Part shown: positions 13,178 to 43,168 of the stretch, piece after piece
Layout of the letters: every line of letters begins with the position of its first letter
Position numbering within the stretch: the stretch's first letter is position 1
Virus record (IMG/VR): IMGVR_UViG_3300001865_000266
Location: 1 to 43,168 of that record
Source of the DNA: a virus
DNA length: 43,168 nucleotides
Strand: one strand, 5' to 3'
Program-made: the position numbers and the translations under genes
The notes under the pieces: generated by a model
Told to the model about the DNA's origin: nothing
Database searches by the model: none
Seen by the model: the letters and a program-made list of their open reading frames with translations, nothing else

Positions 13178-14596
13178 TTAGGCCTCCATTGAAAGTTTTA
13201 TCCTGTAATTAATGGCCTTGAGAATGCCTGGAATTATAAACTCGAAATCAACATTAGCTATTTCGCTGTTCTGTGTATCTGGAGTGATAGCTACAGGGAT
13301 ATCCTTAACAATGTTTTGATTGATAAGGTCCTGTTTCCTGTTTTCCAGTTCTCCAAGGGCACTTTCTATGCTTGTACTAATTCCAACTCTACCTTTCCAA
13401 TCATCCAGGTTAAGATATTTAATACAGAAATTCCTGATTTTTGTAGCGTAAAGTTCACTTGTTGGAACTTTTTTACCCTGGTCATCAACATCCCTTATAG
13501 CGGTTACACTTGAAACAATACCATAATCATTGTTTTCATGAGTCATGAGTTTAAGAAGTGTAACTCCACCATTAACTAAAGCGTATCCATCGTCAGTAGC
13601 GCCAAATTTAAAAGTAGGTGTAATAGAAGTGACATCTAAAATTTTCTTATTTGTAGAACTTTCATTCACAGCTAACCCTGCTTCATATGCTACCATTCGG
13701 GCAACAAATTCAGATTCAGATAGTGAATCATTATCAACATTTCCTTTCTGGTAGAAATAGAACATGTTATCTGAGTCAGTTGTTCCAACGTTTGTGAGAG
13801 TAGTTGCAACATTGTTAGATTCTGCAAGAGCGAAAGCCCCTATAGCTGGTGTGGCCAGTGCAAATTTACTGTCAAGCCATGCCTTTAATGTTGGAAGGTA
13901 TGTTGGATCTACAGTGTCAGTTAAAATTAAGTAATCAAAACTTTCATTCAAAACAGTTGCTAAAGCATTTGTTATGTCTGTTGTGGTTGGTGAAGCTGTT
14001 TCAGTTCCTCCAGCTAAAGCTGTATCAGTAACTGTGGCTAATGTTCTGGCAAGTTCTGTTGATGTTCCACTAGCAACAAGATAATTATCACTAGCATTAA
14101 TCTTATTCATGATGTCAGTTGTATTTGCACAATTGTCTATCTGGTCAACAATTACATCATTTAATTTAATTGTGACTTTCTGTCCACTAATTGTTCCTGC
14201 ACCTATGGAAATCTTTAAACCTCCACTTGCACCATTTGCCCAAGGACCTCCACTAACTGCAGTTACATGAAGTCCAACAGCTGAACTTGCATCTAGTAAT
14301 GTTGCAGAAGCTTTGACTGTTGTTCCTGTTTTAACACAAATACAGTCAGTTGCACCGTAGTTTTCATTTTCAAGGTCCTGTTTAAAGGTATAAACAATTA
14401 TGTTTGTACCACTGTAACTGGCACTTGCACCCATACCTTGCAATGCATCTGAAGCACTTTTAAAGAAGTATGGTTTATTTGCATCTCCTCTTTCAAAGTT
14501 TCCTATAATGCATACACGGCCAGCTGTTCCGAAGGTTCTGGATACATCACCTTTTACAATCTGGGCACTTGATCCAGGTATAACAATATTTCCCAT
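13178..14596 (-). CDS. Contractile tail sheath protein
   Basis: IVIPG...GNFERGDANKP...LAGGT...LVNGGVT pattern; 472 aa. Confidence 0.9.
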   Translation of the reverse strand: MGNIVIPGSSAQIVKGDVSRTFGTAGRVCIIGNFERGDANKPYFFKSASDALQGMGASASYSGTNIIVYTFKQDLENENYGATDCICVKTGTTVKASATLLDASSAVGLHVTAVSGGPWANGASGGLKISIGAGTISGQKVTIKLNDVIVDQIDNCANTTDIMNKINASDNYLVASGTSTELARTLATVTDTALAGGTETASPTTTDITNALATVLNESFDYLILTDTVDPTYLPTLKAWLDSKFALATPAIGAFALAESNNVATTLTNVGTTDSDNMFYFYQKGNVDNDSLSESEFVARMVAYEAGLAVNESSTNKKILDVTSITPTFKFGATDDGYALVNGGVTLLKLMTHENNDYGIVSSVTAIRDVDDQGKKVPTSELYATKIRNFCIKYLNLDDWKGRVGISTSIESALGELENRKQDLINQNIVKDIPVAITPDTQNSEIANVDFEFIIPGILKAINYRIKLSMEA

Positions 14597-23161: not shown

Positions 23162-24562
23162 CTATGCAATAATACTTGCTCCTTTCCTTCTAAGTTTAAT
23201 ATATCCATAAGCCACTGCATCTACAATATCATCATTTTTTCCTTCAGGGAATGCTTTAAATTCTGAATTAATTGCTTCAGTAAGTTTAAGATCGTTAATA
23301 GCAAAAAAGACTTTTTCATCTTGAATACCATATTTAAGAGGTGTTCCCCTGTCCGGTTTGCTTTTAATTGGAATAGATCGTCTGACACGATACCCTTTGA
23401 GTTGACGTTTCCATTCATCCCAGAGTAGATTTCCATCTCCAGTTTTAGCAAATTCTAAAAGAATAATTACATCTGGACCGTCGCGTTTGGCCGTGTTTAA
23501 GACCATATCTTTAGTGTTATTCTCACCAGTCTCCTCTTTCTCCCTACCAAACTGACCACGTATAAGTTCTAATACTCCAACACGGCCTTTATTAGTACGG
23601 CACATCAAGGCCCCGACCGTATAGTCGGCATGTAATGTTTCACCACTTGACAGATCCCAACTACGCATTCTTTTAATAATCTTCTCTCCAGGTTGAAGAG
23701 ATTCATATTTAAGTGCATCCACATCGAAGAAATCAGATGTTTCGTCTAAAGGTTTTTGTTGCCAAATAGCACTGAATAAACGTTCTCCAACAACGCCGAG
23801 TTTGGAGTTTAATTCTTTAAGGGAATACTGTTCAGGCCATAAAGTAGTTCCATCTTCTTTAATGGCTGAAAAGGTTATGAATTTAAATAAATCTGATAAT
23901 TTTTCTTTAAAGTACCCGATAAGATCATCACTATGCCATCGGGTGTGTAAAACTAATAATTTTGTATGTGGTTCTAATCTTTGGATAATAATTCTTTTGA
24001 ACCAATCTATTTTCTTCTTTAATGCTGTGGGGGTGAGTTCATCCTCTTCACCTTTATAAGGGTCATCTACAATTATGTAATCTGCATCTTGACCTGTGAT
24101 TGAACCTGAAGCACCTGTTAATCTAATACTTCCACGGTATAAGTTGCCGTCTTTATCACAGAACTTTAAATGGGTGCTGCTATGCTTAACATCACTAAGA
24201 TAAACATTAAATCTGGGGCCATGTTTCTTTATAAGTTCTCTAAGATCTATACCAAACTTCTCTGCAAGTGTATTTGTATTTGATACGATGAGAATATTTA
24301 AATTAGGATTATCAAAGATAAGCCATAATGGATAGGCTATTGTAACCATTGAAGATTTACTATGCCTTGGAGGCATTGAAATAGCTAAATGTTTTTTTAA
24401 TTTACCAAGAGTTAAAGCCATTAAATGTCTTGAAAGATCTTTGATATGTTTAGCAGGTTTTGCATCAGATCCAAAATGTTCTTGAGTTACAAATAATCTA
24501 TAAAAAAGGTATAAATCATTTATAAAGCGAGGATCCAAATCATTCTGCATCATACCCTTCAC
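23162..24562 (-). CDS. Terminase large subunit
   Basis: Walker A MPPRHSKS, Walker B IIVDDP, nuclease RSWDLS...DYTVG...DDIVDA. Confidence 0.95.
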   Translation of the reverse strand: MKGMMQNDLDPRFINDLYLFYRLFVTQEHFGSDAKPAKHIKDLSRHLMALTLGKLKKHLAISMPPRHSKSSMVTIAYPLWLIFDNPNLNILIVSNTNTLAEKFGIDLRELIKKHGPRFNVYLSDVKHSSTHLKFCDKDGNLYRGSIRLTGASGSITGQDADYIIVDDPYKGEEDELTPTALKKKIDWFKRIIIQRLEPHTKLLVLHTRWHSDDLIGYFKEKLSDLFKFITFSAIKEDGTTLWPEQYSLKELNSKLGVVGERLFSAIWQQKPLDETSDFFDVDALKYESLQPGEKIIKRMRSWDLSSGETLHADYTVGALMCRTNKGRVGVLELIRGQFGREKEETGENNTKDMVLNTAKRDGPDVIILLEFAKTGDGNLLWDEWKRQLKGYRVRRSIPIKSKPDRGTPLKYGIQDEKVFFAINDLKLTEAINSEFKAFPEGKNDDIVDAVAYGYIKLRRKGASIIA

Positions 24563-25109
24563 TTTCTAAAATGTTCTTCTGAGTTTCTTTATTAAATGAA
24601 GTAGATTCTGAAGTCGAATGTTCCTGCTTTATCTTACCTGTCTGCTCAACATGTTCAGTTGCAGCACCTCTAGCAAGTCTTTCATTTCTTACTCCAATCT
24701 CCCATGTTCGGGCAGCTGCATTTCTTCGACCTTCAGGTGATGCTTTATATTCTTCAGCTGAATACCCAACTTCTTTTAAATCATCTAAAGCTGCATCTTG
24801 AACTATTCTAGCATCTTTAGCCTGTCGTTCATTCATCTCTTCAATTGCCTTCCAATTCTTTTTGAGTCTCTCCTCATCCAAAAAATCATCATAGGCACTT
24901 GCACGTTTCACCCAATCATAGTTTCGAGAATACTTCTCGATCATCTGCGAAGATATTGTTTCATCCTTATCTTCTTGGTACTTTACCCTTACTTTTTCCA
25001 AAGATCTTGTTGGACCAAGGTCTCTATAAATAGTAAATAATAAAAATGCCTTATCACGTTCATACTCGGCACGTTTCCAAATTTGGGAATCTTCAGACAT
25101 TTGAATCAC
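24540..25109 (-). CDS. Terminase small subunit (putative)
   Basis: AFLLFTIYRDLGPTRSLEKV...YDWVKRASAYD HTH pattern; overlaps TerL. Confidence 0.8.
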   Translation of the reverse strand: MIQMSEDSQIWKRAEYERDKAFLLFTIYRDLGPTRSLEKVRVKYQEDKDETISSQMIEKYSRNYDWVKRASAYDDFLDEERLKKNWKAIEEMNERQAKDARIVQDAALDDLKEVGYSAEEYKASPEGRRNAAARTWEIGVRNERLARGAATEHVEQTGKIKQEHSTSESTSFNKETQKNILESEGYDAE

Positions 25110-25292
25110 TTTGAACTAAATTGATATAAATTGATTAAAAATAGGGTAAAAATTACTAGAAATGATATAAAAATTAACTTCTTTTGTATCGAGATTTAAG
25201 ATAATTTAATGCAATTCTATGATCTTCAGGTGTTGGTGGAGGTCCTTGATAATAAGAGAAATGTTTTATGTATGGATTATAAATGGTCTGAC

Positions 25293-25484
25293 TCATAGTT
25301 CTGCAACCTTTGACTCTTCAACTATCAACATATCCCCGCCACATGGACATGTATAAACAAATAATTTACCATTTTGAATAGTCCCATACTTCTTGATAAA
25401 TTCGAGAGCATCCTTACCGTAGATATTTGCTTCGTTTGACACCCCACATTTAGAACATCTTAAATTGAATTTCAAGGTTCTCAA
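25293..25484 (-). CDS. Small Zn-ribbon protein
   Basis: CSKC...CPCG. Confidence 0.6.
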   Translation of the reverse strand: MRTLKFNLRCSKCGVSNEANIYGKDALEFIKKYGTIQNGKLFVYTCPCGGDMLIVEESKVAEL

Positions 25485-25500
25485 GCCTTCTTTGTGATTA

Positions 25501-25776
25501 TTAATATAATTTGATTACAACGAGTAATCCACCTAAAAATGTGATTAACATTAAAATAAAAAATCCTAATATCCAATTCATTTTACTATTTAAATCTTTA
25601 AATCCGTCGTTCATTTCTTGTCTAAGAGTTTTATCTGCTTCTTTAAGAGTTCCATTTGCTTCTTCTTTGGCACCCATAAATTTGTTTACTATACTTTTGA
25701 ACCTAAATAGTTCTCTTAAATCTTTGTCGGTTCTCTCAAAATCCGATTCATGTTTACATTCATGATCTGGTGTCAT
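25501..25776 (-). CDS. Coiled-coil protein with C-terminal TM helix (holin/XhlA-like)
   Basis: KMNWILGFFILMLITFLGGLLVVIKLY terminal helix. Confidence 0.55.
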   Translation of the reverse strand: MTPDHECKHESDFERTDKDLRELFRFKSIVNKFMGAKEEANGTLKEADKTLRQEMNDGFKDLNSKMNWILGFFILMLITFLGGLLVVIKLY

Positions 25777-25815
25777 TTTAATCAGATTCCTAAAAAAATA
25801 AAAAGGATAAAAAAT

Positions 25816-26019
25816 TTATGGTTCTTCTATGATGTCGTCGGATGCTGATGTATCAGTGTTACTTGTTACCTGTGATATTCCCATGCCTGTTACAAATCCA
25901 CCAAGTATACCTAAAGCCACACTGGTAGGATTGGCCTGTCCTAAAAATAAGGCTATTACTCCTATAATTCCTACAAATGCAATTATTTCCATTATAACTT
26001 TTTCGCTAAGTACCATCAT
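25816..26019 (-). CDS. Small two-TM membrane protein (holin-like)
   Basis: Two hydrophobic helices, acidic tail; GGAGG SD before dual ATG ATG start. Confidence 0.55.
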   Translation of the reverse strand: MMVLSEKVIMEIIAFVGIIGVIALFLGQANPTSVALGILGGFVTGMGISQVTSNTDTSASDDIIEEP

Positions 26020-26020
26020 A

Positions 26021-26236
26021 TTAATCCTCCACAATTTTATCATTCGCAATATATCTCCAGTCATCTACATCTTCATCGTAGTAGACTTCCATTCCGTTTA
26101 TCAATGTTTTTCCGTGAATAATTTGTACCGCCTCCGATACAGACTAATCTTCAAATGGTTTTTGTGAATAAAATAAATTTAACATGTGAAATTCAATGTA
26201 TTCTTCTTCGCTGCAATAATCTTCCTTGTCGGTCAT
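26021..26236 (-). pseudogene. Acidic 71-codon frame split by in-frame TAG (26144..26146)
   Basis: Frame open on both sides of the TAG; ATGA-coupled start. Confidence 0.35.
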
Positions 26237-26385
26237 TTGCCCGCCTTCCAAGGTAGTCCTTCCATTGGACATTCTTTATTGAGGCATTCGTAATATTTCC
26301 CAAATGGGTTCCATTCAACCCTATGTCTACAATAACTACACACTGGGCCTTTAACTCCAATGGTTTTAGAACCTTTTGGCTTCAT
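26233..26385 (-). CDS. 50-aa Zn-finger protein (not in track)
   Basis: MKPKGSKTIGVKGPVCSYCRHRVEWNPFGKYYECLNKECPMEGLPWKAGK. Confidence 0.6.
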   Translation of the reverse strand: MKPKGSKTIGVKGPVCSYCRHRVEWNPFGKYYECLNKECPMEGLPWKAGK

Positions 26386-26464
26386 GGAAACACCAAAGTA
26401 ATACTAATTTATGGAATTTTTATAAAAATACGGTGATTTTTATTCAATTGTAATACTTTTATTA

Positions 26465-26690
26465 AAAAATAAAAGATTGTGGAGGTTGAAAGATTTACCA
26501 ATAAGATTAGGTAAACTCCACAATCCTGTAAAAATAAAGAGATTGAGGGAACATAAATCAGGTGGTTTTGGTGATTAAATGAAACAAAAAATGGTTTCCC
26601 TCAACTCTGAAATAAAAATTAAAGATGGTAGTTGGGGTTTTTTAAACCCCTACGAAATGAGTTCTGCATGAGGTAACTACCCTTTGAATG
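26465..26690 (-). terminator. Three tandem stem-loops each followed by a U-tract (terminators or small RNAs)
   Basis: Inverted repeats GATTGTGGAG/CTCCACAATC, GAGATTGAGGGAAC/GTTTCCCTCAACTC, GGTAGTT/AACTACC, each preceded on + by an A-rich tract. Confidence 0.6.
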
Positions 26691-27090
26691 AATCGTAACT
26701 AATCTTTTTATAACTGCTATAACTTGGGGGGCCATCTTTAACTAGACCACATTTGATACAAACTGTTTCGGCCCTTATTTCATCATAAATAAAATCTGTA
26801 CTTTCACAATCACTGCAACGATTAATATCATGATCAGTGGGAAGGGAAGCTGTTTCCGATATCACCCTTGAGAAAGACAGTGTTTCGGGGCTTCCCAATA
26901 AATAGAATCCACATCTACATGTTTTGAGGATTCTGCCTTTGAGAGTTAAAGCTTCATCACAGTAATAGCATTTACCCTCATTAATTGATTTAAGAAATTC
27001 AGTGTTCCAAAAATAATTAGGTTCAGGTTTCATAATCTTTTCAGAGTTATTGCTTTCTATATAATGCCTTACGCCATTAGAAACCATCAT
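26677..27090 (-). CDS. Double Zn-ribbon protein with TFB/TFIIB-type ribbon
   Basis: CSDCESTDFIYDEIRAETVCIKCGLV; also CYYC...CRCG. Confidence 0.75.
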   Translation of the reverse strand: MMVSNGVRHYIESNNSEKIMKPEPNYFWNTEFLKSINEGKCYYCDEALTLKGRILKTCRCGFYLLGSPETLSFSRVISETASLPTDHDINRCSDCESTDFIYDEIRAETVCIKCGLVKDGPPSYSSYKKISYDSFKG

Positions 27091-27464
27091 GTTGAATATC
27101 TCCTTAACCTCAAAGCTTTCAGTTGGTTTTCAACTAAAGTTTTTTCCTTGTCAAAATTTGGATTTCTATTTTTCCCAAGTCCAGTTCTCATTGAACCTAA
27201 TGCTAATTGATCGCTTCTTATAACTGTCCAGTTTCCATTATTATCATAATATTCCATGAATTGTGTACGTTGAATTTGTCTTTTCTTAAAATTATTCTGA
27301 TTATGCCTTCGGTCTTTATATTGTCTCCTACATTCATCTGAACAGTGAACTTGTCGATTATGTTTGACTAAAAAATATGAATCACAGTTTTTGCATTGTT
27401 TGATTACGCCTTCAATTTTTAAATTAAATAGCATACTGATAAGGATACCTTCATTATCTACCAA
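27087..27464 (-). CDS. Treble-clef-type Zn-finger protein
   Basis: KQCKNCDSYF...QVHCSDECRR. Confidence 0.65.
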   Translation of the reverse strand: MVDNEGILISMLFNLKIEGVIKQCKNCDSYFLVKHNRQVHCSDECRRQYKDRRHNQNNFKKRQIQRTQFMEYYDNNGNWTVIRSDQLALGSMRTGLGKNRNPNFDKEKTLVENQLKALRLRRYST

Positions 27465-27515
27465 AATAATGCCTCCAATTAAAATTAAAATAATTAAAAA
27501 ATTAAAAATATAAAA

Positions 27516-27974
27516 TTAGTTGAGTTGGTCTAATTCCTCTGAAACTATTTTGTAAATGATATGTCCTGATAAAAAATCAATGAAATAACCTAATGATTTC
27601 CTTTTTCCATTAATATAAATTCTAGAATGAAATTTTTTTGACTGGTTATGCCAATAAATTCCAACTGGCCAAAGTCCATGATTTTTTCTATGCTGATTAT
27701 TTTTTCGGTTAGTGACTATTTCCAGATTACATCTTCGATTATCAAGTGTGTCATGGTTTTTATGGTGGACTTGTAATCCTTTTGAAGGTTTTTTAATTAC
27801 TCTTGACATTAAAATAGTTCGTGTACGATTATTTTTTTGTATAGTTCGTTCTGCATAATAACTTGATGTATTTTTAAACCAATGTGCATGCCATTTGAAT
27901 TGATTCAAATATTCAAAATCTTCATCATCTACTAAAGCATATTGTTCTTGTGTCAATTTAATTTTTTTAACCAT
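27516..27974 (-). CDS. HNH homing endonuclease with AP2-like domain
   Basis: ALVDDEDFEYLNQFKW...VHHKNHDTLDNRRCNL...GIYWH...KRKSLGYF. Confidence 0.9.
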   Translation of the reverse strand: MVKKIKLTQEQYALVDDEDFEYLNQFKWHAHWFKNTSSYYAERTIQKNNRTRTILMSRVIKKPSKGLQVHHKNHDTLDNRRCNLEIVTNRKNNQHRKNHGLWPVGIYWHNQSKKFHSRIYINGKRKSLGYFIDFLSGHIIYKIVSEELDQLN

Positions 27975-28113
27975 ATTATCTCCTCAATAATAGGGTGCGA
28001 CCATTAGAACATTTAAATAGTTAAAATTTTACTTTAAAAATTTATTACAATCCATCAAAAAACCTCCTTGCAATAGCTAATACAGATTTAAAATGCAAAA
28101 ATAAGTTAAAAAT

Positions 28114-28341
28114 TTATCTAAGTCCTAAAATTCCATAAACAATAATCACTGTAATTATCCACGATATCGGGAATATGTGCCAATGTTTTATCAGTTCTCT
28201 TACTAAAACATCTGTTTTATAATTTAAAGTAAGATATGGTGTGATAATAGTCAAATATCTACTCCACAAAACTCCATTTTCTTCTTTGAAATATCTTAGA
28301 TTTGATGGACATATCCATACATTTTGTCTGTATTTACTCAA
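28114..28341 (-). CDS. Hypothetical membrane protein
   Basis: C-terminal hydrophobic helix; overlap-coupled. Confidence 0.5.
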   Translation of the reverse strand: MSKYRQNVWICPSNLRYFKEENGVLWSRYLTIITPYLTLNYKTDVLVRELIKHWHIFPISWIITVIIVYGILGLR

Positions 28342-28547
28342 TTTACTGGCTCCTTTTGAGTTTTAGATTTATCCATCCATTGGCATTTTCTTTCATGGCA
28401 TTTAATTAGTGGAAGTCCTGTGCTTAGCAATTCTATAACCATGTTTATTGTGTCTTTATTTCCTTGGAATGTGCATATTAAATGTGGTTGTTTGTGTAAT
28501 GTACCTGTAGCATTTGGATCTTCAAATTCTGCTCCAACTTCTGGCAT
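28338..28547 (-). CDS. Hypothetical protein
   Basis: Coupled ORF in early operon. Confidence 0.5.
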   Translation of the reverse strand: MPEVGAEFEDPNATGTLHKQPHLICTFQGNKDTINMVIELLSTGLPLIKCHERKCQWMDKSKTQKEPVN

Positions 28548-28548
28548 G

Positions 28549-29010
28549 TCATCTACCCCGTGTCATTTCCAAATATTTCCGTTGAGTTAAACTTTTATCT
28601 TTTCTGGTTTTAGGTTTTTGCTGATATTCCCTTTCAAATAATTTAGATGAACCATGAGAACTGATATCATACTTTGGAATTTGGAACCCAACTACTGGCA
28701 CCTCATGTCCACCCATCTGATAAGTTAAGCTCATGTTGTGTTTCAGTATGTCCATATTCACCTGCGACACATTATTTATAACAGGCATTATTTGATCCCA
28801 TACTTTCTGCCAAAGTTTATTTAATTTAATAGAAAGTTCTTCCGTTCTTCTGATCTGTTCCATTTCAATATCTGAAATTGTGTAACCCATCGAAGCCCAT
28901 GCACTTACACTAAAAACATAAGTTCCAAACTCAGTTGAAATCTTACCTTCCAACGCATATAAACCCTTTAAATCCTGTTCTATATGTTTATATTGGCACG
29001 TTTTAATCAC
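28549..29010 (-). CDS. Hypothetical protein
   Basis: GTG start after GGTGA SD; 153 aa. Confidence 0.6.
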   Translation of the reverse strand: MIKTCQYKHIEQDLKGLYALEGKISTEFGTYVFSVSAWASMGYTISDIEMEQIRRTEELSIKLNKLWQKVWDQIMPVINNVSQVNMDILKHNMSLTYQMGGHEVPVVGFQIPKYDISSHGSSKLFEREYQQKPKTRKDKSLTQRKYLEMTRGR

Positions 29011-29314
29011 CTTTTATTTTCATATATCCTATTAATTGGGGCTTTGGATCTGGAAATTCTGGTTTAATGTCTATTGTTGGTTTAAAATATTCACGGGCCT
29101 CTTCAATGTCTTCCATTGGATTTGCATTATTCCAACTAGTAGGCCCAGAACATGGTCCTATATGTGCAGTGGGTTGATTTAAGTTGTTAATATCAAATTC
29201 TAGTAATTGGTCATAAATTTCTTTTAATTCTGCTTCTTCATAACCAACATTGCCAAAAAATAATCTACCCATAGTCTCATTGGCGAACTCTTCAAATGAT
29301 TCTTTAACCTTCAT
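29003..29314 (-). CDS. Hypothetical protein
   Basis: GGTGA SD, TAAATG coupling. Confidence 0.65.
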   Translation of the reverse strand: MKVKESFEEFANETMGRLFFGNVGYEEAELKEIYDQLLEFDINNLNQPTAHIGPCSGPTSWNNANPMEDIEEAREYFKPTIDIKPEFPDPKPQLIGYMKIKGD

Positions 29315-29761
29315 TTAATCACCATTTATAACTTTAAGGGCTTCTCGATATTTATTAATCAGTCTATTCCTAGTTTTAGTGTCTAAATTTCTCATTCTTT
29401 TAGGTGATACGTTATGTCTTATATCCGCCTTCTTTACGACTTTGGCTATTGGATTCTGCTTTAAACGGTTCCAATATTCCAAATTTGTTTCATAAGGCCT
29501 ATGTGTCATTCCATCCACAGCCTCAACTATTTCAGTTGAAAACCCCCACTTAAATAAAAATTCTAAAGTTATATCTGAATCCTCTACAACATCATGTAAA
29601 ATTGCTACGGTTTTCTCTTCAATAGTTTCAACTAAATTCATAACAGCCAAAGGATGTAAAATATACGGCAATCCTGCTTTATCTTTTTGATTTGTATGTG
29701 CAATTATTGCAATTTCTAAAGCATTTTCTATTGGATTTATCATAACCTCTTGACATTTCAT
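29315..29761 (-). CDS. HD-domain hydrolase, Mesh1/SpoT-HD-like
   Basis: AHTNQKDKAGLPYILHP...AILHDVVED...VKKADIRHN. Confidence 0.85.
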   Translation of the reverse strand: MKCQEVMINPIENALEIAIIAHTNQKDKAGLPYILHPLAVMNLVETIEEKTVAILHDVVEDSDITLEFLFKWGFSTEIVEAVDGMTHRPYETNLEYWNRLKQNPIAKVVKKADIRHNVSPKRMRNLDTKTRNRLINKYREALKVINGD

Positions 29762-32035: not shown

Positions 32036-32191
32036 TTATACCACAACCTCCACATGTTCCAATCCACAAAAATCACATCGTACCCATTCATGAATTTCAA
32101 GTGGTGGATCTTCACTTGGATTGAAAATCATTCCTTTACCAGTTCTTTCATTCCAGGGGAGCATGCAATATGGACAGGGTTGTTTTTTCAT
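32036..32191 (-). CDS. 51-aa Zn-finger protein (not in track)
   Basis: CPYC...CDFC. Confidence 0.55.
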   Translation of the reverse strand: MKKQPCPYCMLPWNERTGKGMIFNPSEDPPLEIHEWVRCDFCGLEHVEVVV

Positions 32192-34115: not shown

Positions 34116-34241
34116 TTAATCAGCTCGTTTATCATCAACACTTTCATGAACAAATCGATCATCCTGGCACTGTAAACACGGCCCTTTAAAACGATTCCTC
34201 CACTGGCAATAAGGTTGATCACAGGCTGAGTTTGTAGTCAT
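34116..34241 (-). CDS. 41-aa Cys-containing peptide (not in track)
   Basis: GGTGA SD; CDQPYC...CLQC; fills the gap between coupled genes. Confidence 0.5.
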   Translation of the reverse strand: MTTNSACDQPYCQWRNRFKGPCLQCQDDRFVHESVDDKRAD

Positions 34242-34538
34242 TTAATCACCTATAATTTTTTGACGATTGGTGATATGTCTCCATAATCCCCCAATTTTAT
34301 TGATACGTGTAACTTTTACCGTGTCCTGTTCTGTAATTTGTATTTCCTTGATTTTACGTACCTGTACCAACTTATAATAATAATCAAACCACAAATGAAC
34401 CATTAAATAAATTCTTTCTTCATTTTCAGACTTGTTGATATAATATTCTTTTCCATTATGACTTCCATGGCCGCGTCCATCTGGTGATGTATATCGTTGC
34501 CATCCTGGAACTGATAAAATCCAACTAAAACCTTTCAT
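34242..34538 (-). CDS. Hypothetical protein
   Basis: GGTGA SD, coupled ORF. Confidence 0.6.
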   Translation of the reverse strand: MKGFSWILSVPGWQRYTSPDGRGHGSHNGKEYYINKSENEERIYLMVHLWFDYYYKLVQVRKIKEIQITEQDTVKVTRINKIGGLWRHITNRQKIIGD

Positions 34539-34897
34539 CTAATCACCTTCAAAGTAGTGATTCCATCCATGTTTAAATCAAGATTTAAGAGGTCATTAAG
34601 ACGTTTTAGAATATAAAAAGAATGGTTAAATGTTTGTTGTGGAGTATCGTCACTAGTATGGTTTAAAACATGTAAATCATTATCAAGTCTTTTAACCTGC
34701 ATTCCACGTAAACTAAAAACCTTCCTAATCACATCTTCAATTTCCCTTCTAGAATTATCCTTAACATTATCAAATACATTCAAAATTTTACATTCATAAA
34801 ACACCATATCCCTAAAATCACTCTCAAAAGAACCTAGATATTCAATTAACAATAGATCCCCTCCAAAAAAAGAAAAATTAATCTGGCACATAACCAT
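34535..34897 (-). CDS. Hypothetical protein
   Basis: Coupled ORF; exact start uncertain. Confidence 0.5.
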   Translation of the reverse strand: MVMCQINFSFFGGDLLLIEYLGSFESDFRDMVFYECKILNVFDNVKDNSRREIEDVIRKVFSLRGMQVKRLDNDLHVLNHTSDDTPQQTFNHSFYILKRLNDLLNLDLNMDGITTLKVIR

Positions 34898-35456: not shown

Positions 35457-35618
35457 TCAATTCCCCCTCAACTCTTCCATTTCACTTATCTGATCCTCAA
35501 GTATCTTCTTTTCCTGTCTCAATTTCGCATCATTAGGATACAACTTAAGACGTGTATTAACGTTTTTAAGTCTTTGACTCGCATCGATCCAAGTTGTGGT
35601 TGCTTCTAATTTGTTCAT
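35457..35618 (-). CDS. 53-aa coiled-coil peptide (not in track)
   Basis: ATGA coupling; MNKLEATTTWIDASQRL...EELRGN. Confidence 0.5.
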   Translation of the reverse strand: MNKLEATTTWIDASQRLKNVNTRLKLYPNDAKLRQEKKILEDQISEMEELRGN

Positions 35619-35932
35619 TTGCTCACCATGGCCTGTTTAGTATCTACTTTAAAGGTGGCTTGTGGACCTTTAACGTTCCTTAATTTTGCAATATAAAATA
35701 AAGCTGCATAACAATGTTTACAAAGAAAACTGCCATTTTTACTGTTTCCTTCACGTTGAAATCTGAATTCATAATCCTCACAAGTATTGCACCTGGCCAC
35801 CCCATCAACTATAGAAACAAGATAATCTGTAGGGCCACTTGTGACCTGGACCTGGATCTCTTCATCATCCTCAAAAATTAACGAACACTTACCTTGATGA
35901 TACAACCTATAACCTGCATCTAAACGCTTCAT
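35615..35932 (-). CDS. SWIM Zn-finger protein
   Basis: YLVSI...ARCNTCEDYEFR...LCKHCYAAL. Confidence 0.8.
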   Translation of the reverse strand: MKRLDAGYRLYHQGKCSLIFEDDEEIQVQVTSGPTDYLVSIVDGVARCNTCEDYEFRFQREGNSKNGSFLCKHCYAALFYIAKLRNVKGPQATFKVDTKQAMVSK

Positions 35933-36594: not shown

Positions 36595-36707
36595 GAGGGG
36601 ATTGTAGGAGAAAAGATATTTTTGGTAGACATCACCAAATCAAAAAGTTCCCTTATATTCATATAAAATTGGAGGTATTACATGCAAAACCTACAAATCC
36701 TTTCCTC
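36595..36707 (-). ncRNA. Stem-loop RNA with anti-Shine-Dalgarno loop
   Basis: GAGGGGATTGTAGG/CCTACAAATCCTTTCCTC inverted repeat; minus-strand loop contains AATACCTCCAATTTT. Confidence 0.5.
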
Positions 36708-36722
36708 AAAAAAAGTAAAATA

Positions 36723-37292
36723 TTAACCTCTACGATTTAGTTCTTTCTCAATCCTTGGCAGTATCTCAGCGGGTAAAGTTTCCTTATCATCTATATGATA
36801 CTTTTTAGCACGTTCTAAGATTGATTTTACAGTTGGATCTATATGTTCATCCATCAGATCATCAACAATCTGATCAATAAGTCCAGCTGCTTCAACGTCT
36901 GCCAGTGGAGTTGCAGGTTTACTTTCGGCCTTTAACTCTGCATACAGAGGATCATCTTTTGATAATAAAACATGTATTTTGAATTTTTTGAAAGGTTTTT
37001 TCCGAGTGTCTGCCATTTCCTTTACACCTGTGAAAATAATTTGTAAAGGTTTATTCAGCAATCTATCAGTTAACCGGCTGTTTAATCCTGTTGTACCATA
37101 GAATTGAATTTTTCCATTAACAGCTTCAGGATGTTCAGTTTCAAAACAATACTTCCAATTTGGCCTTCCTTTAAATGGTGCTTCCTCTTTTTTAAGATAT
37201 ACTCCTACTAACTCATCACCAATTGTTTCCGGCTCCCATAACCCTGATTTATCAGGAATTGGAACCCATTCTTTATCTTTTGTGTCTATCAT
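36723..37292 (-). CDS. Putative OB-fold ssDNA-binding protein
   Basis: WEPETIGDELVGVY...FYGTTGLNSRL...LQIIFTG pattern; start ATG 37292 after GGAGG. Confidence 0.55.
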   Translation of the reverse strand: MIDTKDKEWVPIPDKSGLWEPETIGDELVGVYLKKEEAPFKGRPNWKYCFETEHPEAVNGKIQFYGTTGLNSRLTDRLLNKPLQIIFTGVKEMADTRKKPFKKFKIHVLLSKDDPLYAELKAESKPATPLADVEAAGLIDQIVDDLMDEHIDPTVKSILERAKKYHIDDKETLPAEILPRIEKELNRRG

Positions 37293-37400
37293 TCCAAATA
37301 CCTCCAATTTTTAATCTTTTAATTTACAACTATTCACAAACCATAAAACAAGTAAAAAAGCAACGGCCCATAAAACAAGACCTAAAAATAATGACATATT

Positions 37401-38568: not shown

Positions 38569-39027
38569 TTAAAAAGGATACATCTCAATAATCTTATAAT
38601 GATTGGTGAGTTTATCCTGAACACTGACCGGTCCATTCCACTTACCATCAAGAGTATGAGGTAATCGAGACCATGGAACAATTCTGTCCACATGCAACTG
38701 ATAAGGATTATTTTTCCAATATGGTTTATAATCAATCACAGCATTGTAACGTTTACCATTCCGTTTCGATTCAACACGTAACAGAAAAACAGTATTCTCT
38801 TCAATAAAATGTTCAGAATCAAGATTCCTCTTGATGAATCGTTTTAATGCAATTCCGATTTTGGATCTGTTTCGGAATAATTGTTGAGTCTTTGGTAGAA
38901 TATTATTGATTCTTGCTTGGTTTTCAATTTCACGTTCAGCTTTTAACTGGGCCTGTTCCTCTTCATATTGTTTTTTCAATTTCAATTCCTCTTCCTTACT
39001 AATACGAATCTGTTCAACTCCAATCAA
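38569..39027 (-). CDS. Hypothetical protein
   Basis: TTG start overlapping upstream stop; 152 aa. Confidence 0.6.
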   Translation of the reverse strand: MIGVEQIRISKEEELKLKKQYEEEQAQLKAEREIENQARINNILPKTQQLFRNRSKIGIALKRFIKRNLDSEHFIEENTVFLLRVESKRNGKRYNAVIDYKPYWKNNPYQLHVDRIVPWSRLPHTLDGKWNGPVSVQDKLTNHYKIIEMYPF

Positions 39028-39155
39028 CCTAAAACCCCCTCACGCATTAATCTAGCAATCCTCATCTGTTTCTCAAGCTCTGCCTCCAACTGCTCATCAA
39101 CCCTCGCAGCCTTAGGCGTTTCCTTATACCTTCTAATAACTACATTTCCCTCCAT
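39024..39155 (-). CDS. 43-aa first gene of early transcript (not in track)
   Basis: GGTGA SD; MEGNVVIRRYKETPKAARVDEQLEAELEKQMRIARLMREGVLG. Confidence 0.55.
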   Translation of the reverse strand: MEGNVVIRRYKETPKAARVDEQLEAELEKQMRIARLMREGVLG

Positions 39156-39221
39156 CTAATCACCAACTATGTTTTTTTAAACTAAACAAAACTCAGAACA
39201 CGCGTCTGAGAAATAAAGAAT

Positions 39222-42007: not shown

Positions 42008-43168
42008 TTATTCTTTTGGAGGTAATTTTAATAATAATTCTAAATTACCTGTTTTAATTGCTTCTAACATTACTTCCATCTCAGAACGAAGCTTTTTATT
42101 ATCATTTTCAACATCAATTAAACGCTGTTTATCTTCAGTTGTTACATGATGTACTTGAGTATCTCGAAGACTTAACTCAGCAATGCATAGGGTGTACTGT
42201 TCTTTTAGGAAGTTGTCATCCTGTTTGATGTAAGCTTCTTGTATTTCATCAATTGTATGGCCTAAAAGTCGAGATATTGTTATTTGTTGTAAACCTTGAT
42301 TCATTAGTGTGGTTGCAAATATTTTCCGGAAACTATGACTATGTAGTTTGATATGGGATCCTACCATTCCAAAATCACATTTATTATTTAAGAATACAAA
42401 ATAGTTGAAAAATGCTCTTTTGCTGATTGGTTTGGTTTTAAACCGTCCACTTGGGAATAGTGGTGTTTCTAATGTTTTTGGAGGTTGGGTTTTTAAATAT
42501 TTTAGTATAGCATCTACACATTCAGGGGTACTAAATGTAGTAACTGGCGTGTCATTTTTTATTGTTGTTATTTTCCAAGTTGGGATTATTTCTTCATTAG
42601 TTTTAGACAGTATTTGGATAAGTTCATCTACACTAATCATAGTGTTATCTGTTACTTTGATGTATTGGTGTAAGGATTTAATAAAGTCGTGATAGGATAA
42701 TGCTCTTATATCACTACTTCTTAATCCTGTGGATAGGGCGGTTTTAATTATTGCTTCATATTTGACATTTGCAAAGGTTAAAGCTTCCCGAATTTCATCT
42801 TTAGTAGGTAAATCTGTTAAACTCTCCTTTTTAATATTTTTTTTACTATAATTAATTCTTGGAACCACTACATCAAACTGTTTATAAAATGATTTAATGG
42901 AACTTAATCTTACAATAATGGTTCGTGGACTGTAATTATTTTCTACAAGATAATCTTTATAATCCAACAAGTAATCATTAATGGTTCTTTGTGATAATCG
43001 TAATCCTTGGTCTTCTTCGTTTTCGGCTTCTGTTATAAATTCATCAGGTGTTTTGTTTAGAAATTCACTGTATTGTGTTATTTCTATTCTGTACCGTTCT
43101 AATGTTCCACTTCGAATTGTTCGGTTTTTTATGAACCTTTTAAAACGTCGATCCCCTGTAATGTCCAT
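42008..43168 (-). CDS. int: Tyrosine integrase
   Basis: STGLRSSDI (R), HSHSFRK (HxxR), LLGH, EAY catalytic residues. Confidence 0.95.
   Translation of the reverse strand: MDITGDRRFKRFIKNRTIRSGTLERYRIEITQYSEFLNKTPDEFITEAENEEDQGLRLSQRTINDYLLDYKDYLVENNYSPRTIIVRLSSIKSFYKQFDVVVPRINYSKKNIKKESLTDLPTKDEIREALTFANVKYEAIIKTALSTGLRSSDIRALSYHDFIKSLHQYIKVTDNTMISVDELIQILSKTNEEIIPTWKITTIKNDTPVTTFSTPECVDAILKYLKTQPPKTLETPLFPSGRFKTKPISKRAFFNYFVFLNNKCDFGMVGSHIKLHSHSFRKIFATTLMNQGLQQITISRLLGHTIDEIQEAYIKQDDNFLKEQYTLCIAELSLRDTQVHHVTTEDKQRLIDVENDNKKLRSEMEVMLEAIKTGNLELLLKLPPKE

Follow-up and report, generated by a model that had tools for sequence, protein, structure and literature searches.

Within a virus of a methanogenic archaeon, the minus-strand RNA of a hairpin beyond the last gene of the early operon (hairpin 2, positions 26538–26608) carries a 15-nucleotide sequence (26569–26583) that is complementary, exactly in one case and closely in others, to the Shine-Dalgarno (SD) site and start codon of several genes of the same virus. 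Established here are the match itself and its rarity by statistics, together with the fold of the hairpin and its placement in a terminator zone. From these we infer, tentatively and at a little short of an even chance, that the RNA is made, that it pairs with those start regions and that it represses their translation, and hairpin 2 is put forward on its sequence as a candidate anti-ribosome-binding-site (anti-RBS) element.

The window, by which we mean the whole stretch of DNA analysed, corresponds to a provirus record in IMG/VR. It is 43,168 bases long and has approximately 34% G+C, and almost all of its long open reading frames (ORFs) are on the minus strand. Pfam matches are found for an integrase (42008–43168), an N6 methylase, an HNH endonuclease (27516–27974), a large terminase (23162–24562), a portal protein and a head protease. 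The terminase shares 72% identity with one on a Methanobacterium sp. MAG contig and 51% with its counterpart in Caudoviricetes sp. vir080 (host Methanobacteriales), and the window is therefore read as a tailed provirus of a Methanobacterium-type archaeon. We read the early genes as extending from about 41500 down to 26677 and the packaging and structural genes as lying below 26400, all in leftward orientation. The last early gene (26677–27090, minus strand) encodes a 137-aa protein with a TFIIB-type zinc ribbon (PF08271, E 3.7e-07), and its 3′ end adjoins the hairpin zone; the first gene past the zone is a 50-aa zinc-ribbon-like ORF (26233–26385, minus strand) with SD and start UUUGGUG..AUGAA.

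Between these two genes lies a zone of about 200 nt that holds several oligo-U tracts and three hairpins, with the 15-mer in the middle one. Read along the minus strand from the end of gene 26677–27090, the zone begins just past the stop codon with hairpin 3 (26631–26653, GGGGUUUAAAAAACCCC core) and a U5 tract (26614–26618), continues with hairpin 2, which has a U6 tract (26586–26591) in its interior immediately 5′ of the 15-mer, and a second U5 tract directly past it (26530–26534), and then reaches hairpin 1 (26473–26527, z = -5.7), whose 3′ arm has ACCUCC and which is followed by a U6 tract (26464–26469). After these come a palindromic TATA-like box, TTTTTATAAAAA (26417–26428), separated by some 25 nt from the leader of gene 26233–26385 downstream, and finally the SD and start of that gene at 26385. 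Runs of U5 or longer are thus present on the transcribed strand just past the last gene of the operon. Throughout the window, 39 of 121 minus-strand U-runs are located in intergenic DNA, which makes up about 8% of the sequence, while the plus-strand T-runs have no such concentration, and the hairpin zone is therefore taken to be transcribed leftward. Transcription by archaeal polymerases terminates at oligo-U, and several terminators in succession are the usual arrangement in archaea (PMC7237163), so the stretch is interpreted as a region in which early-operon transcription ends and beyond which the packaging-side operon has its promoter, a role inferred for the TATA-like box; the word TTTTTATAAAAA also precedes the gene start at 32191.

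The arrangement bears on when the RNA would be made. The first-pass annotation had proposed a late-made repressor, and this timing is not supported: the element is upstream of the TATA-like box and inside the zone that ends the early leftward operon, so that minus-strand RNA with the loop would form the 3′ terminus of early transcripts, except if it had its own promoter. A separate small-RNA promoter in the T/A-rich spacer at 26612–26625 was considered but is not proposed, as the spacer resembles the U-tract terminators that follow other genes. Since the first U5 tract and the interior U6 tract are both upstream of the 15-mer on the minus strand, many transcripts may stop short of it; the U6 tract is a possible early termination point of this kind, and the anti-SD sequence is present only in transcripts that pass both tracts. 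A scan for sigma-70 promoters and intrinsic terminators, the models of which are not applicable to archaea, returned no terminator. Two further features of the zone are recorded here. One is a 20-nt direct repeat, TAAAAA(A)TAAAxGATTGxGG (26463–26482 and 26529–26548, 66 nt apart), which is common to hairpins 1 and 2, spans an arm plus tail and suggests tandem duplication of one hairpin-plus-U-tract unit. Also, a 12-mer, ACTAATTTATGG, at 26403–26414 in the leader region of gene 26233–26385 equals the start context of gene 13178–14596, which is within chance expectation.

Hairpin 2 itself is well defined by folding. Its outer stem (26596–26608 with 26538–26551, one bulge) comprises 13+4 bp and encloses a large interior with weak inner helices; the fold reaches -17 kcal/mol with z = -3.1, and only one of 200 shuffled sequences was equally stable. 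The apical loop is 11 nt, CCAAAACCACC (26571–26561). The hairpin is real, but the 15-mer is only partly open: in the minimum free energy fold eight of its 15 nt are in the weak inner helices AAUCA/UGAUU and CAU/AUG and CCAAAACCACC alone is exposed apically.

The 15-mer reads TGGTGATTAAATGAA on the plus strand and UUCAUUUAAUCACCA on the minus strand, where it amounts to an anti-SD, an anti-stop and an anti-AUG in series. It is the exact reverse complement of 29310–29324 on the minus strand, a segment that covers the SD GGTGAT, the stop TAA of gene 29315–29761 and the ATG plus AA of gene 29003–29314, and the pairing there extends to 16 bp with one G:U. Three further minus-strand starts are complementary at lower stringency, and together the four SD/start regions give 13–17 bp of base complementarity. 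At the start of a 41-codon ORF, 34116–34241 (site 34237–34251), an exact 13-nt complement is found at 34238–34250; at the start of gene 34242–34538 (site 34534–34548) a 15-bp helix forms with one G:U; and at the start of a 43-codon ORF, 39024–39155 (site 39151–39165), a 17-bp helix forms with three G:U. A fifth site, the start at 35618 (35614–35628), has two true mismatches to the 15-mer; as plain sequence, each of the sites 34237–34251, 34534–34548, 39151–39165 and 35614–35628 differs from it at two positions. The SD and start at 26385 are complementary to the hairpin 2 loop at 14 of 17 positions. The complementarity to several gene starts that the first-pass annotation reported is real: its perfect 15-nt pairing with the SD and AUG of 29003–29314 and its 13-nt pairing with the 34241 start were both recovered, and the single G:U at the 34538 start holds over 14–15 nt, whereas the 39155 start, for which one G:U was also claimed, needs two within the 15 nt.

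The energies of these helices were calculated with and without the cost of opening the structures involved. Duplex energies for five starts range from -20 to -24 kcal/mol, and the best of them exceeds in strength those of just 97% of shuffled loops. With the cost of opening subtracted, net binding amounts to -5 to -9 kcal/mol (-6.7 kcal/mol at the 26385 start), values that shuffled loops match in 0–2 of 60 trials for four of the five targets; ranked in this way the named targets are within the top 12 of 75 starts, with none at the top. Net pairing of hairpin 2 RNA with its putative targets is thus predicted to be feasible. In a ranking of ungapped helices over all non-coding minus-strand RNA, with G:U pairs admitted, four of the top five belong to the hairpin 2 loop; they score 30–35, compared with peaks of 27–32 in 20 control sets of coding RNA. 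No other element in this non-coding RNA is as strong against gene starts.

Whether such a match could arise by chance depends on the category in which it is counted. Across the whole window there are eight exact inverted 15-mers against 5.4 +/- 2.9 in dinucleotide shuffles, 20% of which reach eight, and no exact inverted repeat is longer than 15–16 nt; 15-nt inverted repeats are common on this scale, and a bare perfect antisense match of this length therefore means little. A restricted test compared the plus strand of the 2.5 kb of non-coding DNA with the -20 to +8 contexts of 75–77 gene starts. Here two 15-mers were found (26569–26583, and 36665–36679 against 37297–37311) where 0.01–0.02 were expected, and two were reached in none of 500 shuffles in one series and one of 200 in another; the entire excess at 12 nt or more is due to these two sites. 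The statistics are in this way divided, with a match that is rare among intergenic sequences set against starts and ordinary window-wide. We regard the match as beyond chance in the non-coding-versus-start category, and since this category was picked after the data had been seen, its significance is taken as about P 0.01 or less and not as the nominal 1e-4.

These figures weigh directly on the reading that survives best beside the anti-RBS element, namely that the zone is a plain terminator whose hairpins and U-tracts only end early transcription, and that the loop has no function of its own and reads by coincidence as an SD-start word on the other strand. The window-wide count of inverted repeats agrees with it, as do the usual occurrence of consecutive terminators in archaea and the U-tracts that come after each hairpin, and it must be remembered that striking matches were sought across the whole window. 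Neither is there a general excess of anti-SD words in intergenic RNA: an enrichment that at first involved 5 of 13 hexamers was lost against composition-matched shuffles, which likewise gave no enrichment of 16S-tail words in sense intergenic RNA. Against coincidence, two of the seven or eight 15-mers link a non-coding hairpin loop to a gene SD; the antisense of coding DNA (37.5 kb, a set 16 times larger) has no match to gene starts of 14 nt or more, its longest being a single 13-mer; and the same start-context test on vir080 and six other loci found nothing. On balance we consider coincidence in an ordinary terminator rather unlikely.

The second of the two 15-mers deserves a description of its own. 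The exact inverted pair 36665–36679/37297–37311 involves AAAATTGGAGGTATT, which covers the SD of gene 36723–37292, and its complement is in the 11-nt apical loop, UACCUCCAAUU, of a long hairpin, so that the loop shows ACCUCC. This hairpin is positioned about 45 nt past the stop codon of the same gene and immediately before a tRNA-Thr gene, and the plus-strand frame headed by the element has 14 codons only. Judged by its sequence, the 36665 element looks like a 3′-UTR anti-SD acting on its own mRNA, a putative design that parallels that of hairpin 2.

What the 15-mer matches is a junction, consisting of SD, stop and ATG, that four minus-strand genes have in common. The junction GGTGATTARATG occurs five times in the window, where shuffles lead one to expect none: four copies are at the minus-strand starts 29314, 34241, 34538 and 39155, and the fifth is the plus-strand copy at 26569–26583. 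The genes that begin at those four starts are unrelated and yet have the identical 12-nt junction. GGTGAT is a regular SD site of the provirus, used at about ten starts that are mostly early; GGTGAT-only SDs are seen at about 10 of 45 starts in the early half and at about 2–4 of 32 in the late half, where GGAGG dominates. The 3′ tail of archaeal 16S rRNA, GAUCACCUCCU-3′, contains AUCACC, which fits GGTGAT. The hairpin 2 loop resembles this tail in having AUCACC and CCACCU, the words with which the ribosome recognizes GGUGAU-type SDs, but its match continues through the stop, the AUG and the second codon, where the rRNA tail does not pair. The junction word feeds two readings: it could be a real plus-strand start or the complement of an RNA selected to pair with the junction class. 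Since the word is made only of translation signals (SD, stop, ATG and a Lys codon), a plus-strand start would produce the same word. Among 72 real starts, on the other hand, the best mutual word is typically 8–9 nt and at most 13 nt, so that a 15-nt identity is long even for a true start, and a match of 15 nt is the length that selection for pairing would give.

The plus-strand reading takes the 15-mer as the genuine SD and start codon of a 30-codon gene, 26579–26671, and its likeness to the other starts as nothing but shared translation signals. Such an ORF does exist, as the first-pass annotation had noted when it offered this alternative: it starts at the ATG of the 15-mer, is preceded by a double SD (AGGTGG, then GGTGAT) three bases before ATG-AAA, with proper spacing and an open frame, and has the same SD-TAA-ATG junction as the four real genes. 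An open frame also ends at the junction TAA, as at a coupled junction, the palindromic TATA-like box at 26417–26428 could fire rightward, and a gene caller predicted the ORF in one of three assemblies. Several observations weaken it. It would stand by itself on the plus strand, with minus-strand genes around it, and it contains hairpin 3, whose loop on the plus strand is a T6 run (26638–26643), as well as the 3′ arm of hairpin 2 in codons 5–10. A HMMER search of 1.84 billion representative proteins returned no homologue, only the peptide itself (E 1.6e-12), although such a search has low power at 30 aa. The limit of 13 nt on what real starts share with each other also counts against it, and so does the sister element at 36665, which heads a frame of only 14 codons. 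We judge a translated plus-strand gene to be improbable. On the same strand, a 33-codon frame at 26477–26578, which starts with TTG and whose residues are very basic, has its end precisely at the junction TAA, and on paper the plus strand thereby mimics a coupled two-ORF junction; no SD is present before the TTG.

A role at the level of DNA or of protein binding would make the inverted 15-bp copies at 26569 and 29310 sites for a DNA- or RNA-binding protein of the virus, or the ends of a 2.7-kb cassette with the HNH endonuclease gene. The two copies do bracket genes 26677–29314, the HNH endonuclease included, and the pair 36665/37297 likewise brackets one gene, but the similarity is confined to 15 nt, no recombinase is nearby, and the idea gives no reason for both pairs landing exactly on an SD-start junction; we consider it very improbable. 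An inverted duplication of a gene start is rejected because the similarity ends at 15 nt.

For the anti-RBS reading, the following course of events can be envisaged. Early transcripts that pass the first U-tracts would bear the element at their 3′ ends; alternatively, it would be present on a short stable fragment derived from them. Pairing with the SD-stop-AUG junction GGUGAUUARAUG of the four early genes (starts 29314, 34241, 34538 and 39155) would be nucleated by the C-rich apical loop CCAAAACCACC together with the neighbouring AUCA/UUCAU bases. The start at 35618 may be paired less strongly, as may, in cis where transcripts read through, that of the first gene downstream (26385). A paired junction would be closed to the ribosome, so that translation of those genes would fall as early RNA accumulates.

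Searches beyond the window were made at the level of nucleotides, proteins and RNA families. Contigs of three other assemblies are base-for-base identical over 6.4 kb. No nucleotide similarity was found in the region among the relatives L002–L007 and L010 (49–72% terminase identity) and vir080 (51%), and a search of IMG/VR for loci through the neighbouring 137-aa and 50-aa proteins retrieved none; the 137-aa protein has itself as sole match in a set of 5.8 billion proteins. Scanning the arms of hairpin 2 across IMG/VR gave 17 hits, all unrelated, and Rfam covariance models, searched over positions 25000–28000, had no match at E up to 1. No sequencing run listed as containing the sequence is recorded as RNA; about one-tenth of its words occur in four wastewater runs that were taken, as a guess, for RNA. 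Two relatives have features of their own. In L005 (816–950; 68% terminase identity) the corresponding position, between genes for a zinc-ribbon protein and a small membrane protein, is occupied by a long-loop hairpin, GGGAGTAGAGA...TCTCTACTTCC. Directly after it come AUCCCUCCUUA, a close approximation of the 16S tail, and then a U-tract; the opposite strand has no usable start there. In the more distant and very A+T-rich L007 (3060–4260), more than 1 kb of non-coding sequence before a TFIIB-ribbon gene contains three copies of TTCCAC(C)TT(T)ATATATTGRAG, probably repeated promoters.

The candidate can be compared with three known kinds of element. In Methanosarcina mazei, loop sequences of sRNA41 and sRNA154 mask ribosome-binding sites (PMC5867862). 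Shared with the proposal made here are the methanogen host, a stem-loop that displays an anti-RBS sequence, repression at the level of translation, and several RBSs within polycistronic mRNAs as proposed targets. The Methanosarcina RNAs are chromosomal, separately transcribed, experimentally shown and conserved in the genus, with a short imperfect seed, whereas the candidate hairpin 2 element is viral, is situated in a terminator zone and would pair perfectly over 15 nt. Consecutive oligo-U terminators that give alternative 3′ UTRs have been described in archaea (Dar et al., 2016, as summarised in PMC7237163), and in that summary they resemble the present zone in their U-tracts, placed in a row after the last gene of an operon, some with preceding hairpins. 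Unlike the 15-mer studied here, a perfect 15-nt complement of a gene start region is not expected in an ordinary archaeal terminator. The c4 antisense RNA of phages P1 and P7 is cut from the operon of its target, pairs with the downstream RBS region and shuts off translation. Pairing of an RBS region by a virus-encoded RNA from the operon of the target is what c4 and the candidate would have in common; c4 is bacterial, is upstream of its target and serves one target operon, while the candidate is downstream of four of its putative targets and would serve several genes. If real, the element would be a viral, terminator-embedded form of a known kind of regulator, without placement in a family by Rfam or by relatives.

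Taken together, the two hairpins raise the possibility, which we regard as conceivable but doubtful, that a tailed virus of Methanobacterium has a post-transcriptional control layer in which hairpins show perfect 15-nt anti-ribosome-site sequences. One part of such a layer would be the hairpin that closes the early operon and addresses four or five early genes sharing GGUGAUUARAUG, and the other a hairpin in the 3′ UTR of a single gene that addresses the SD of that gene (36665 against 37297). If true, the layer would account for the retention of one and the same 12-nt start junction by several unrelated genes, and the target set would be a small one defined by that one shared junction. If not, the case is a warning that SD-stop-ATG words are so constrained that a stray start-like sequence can have antisense matches of 13–15 nt to several genes. 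To our knowledge hardly any work exists on how viruses of methanogens regulate their genes, and we know of no viral regulatory RNA there, so that the element, if true, would be the first to be reported from a methanogen virus. Should the hairpin mask ribosome-binding sites, archaeal viruses would time the translation of their early genes by RNA, in the manner of c4 of P1 and of sRNA41 of Methanosarcina.
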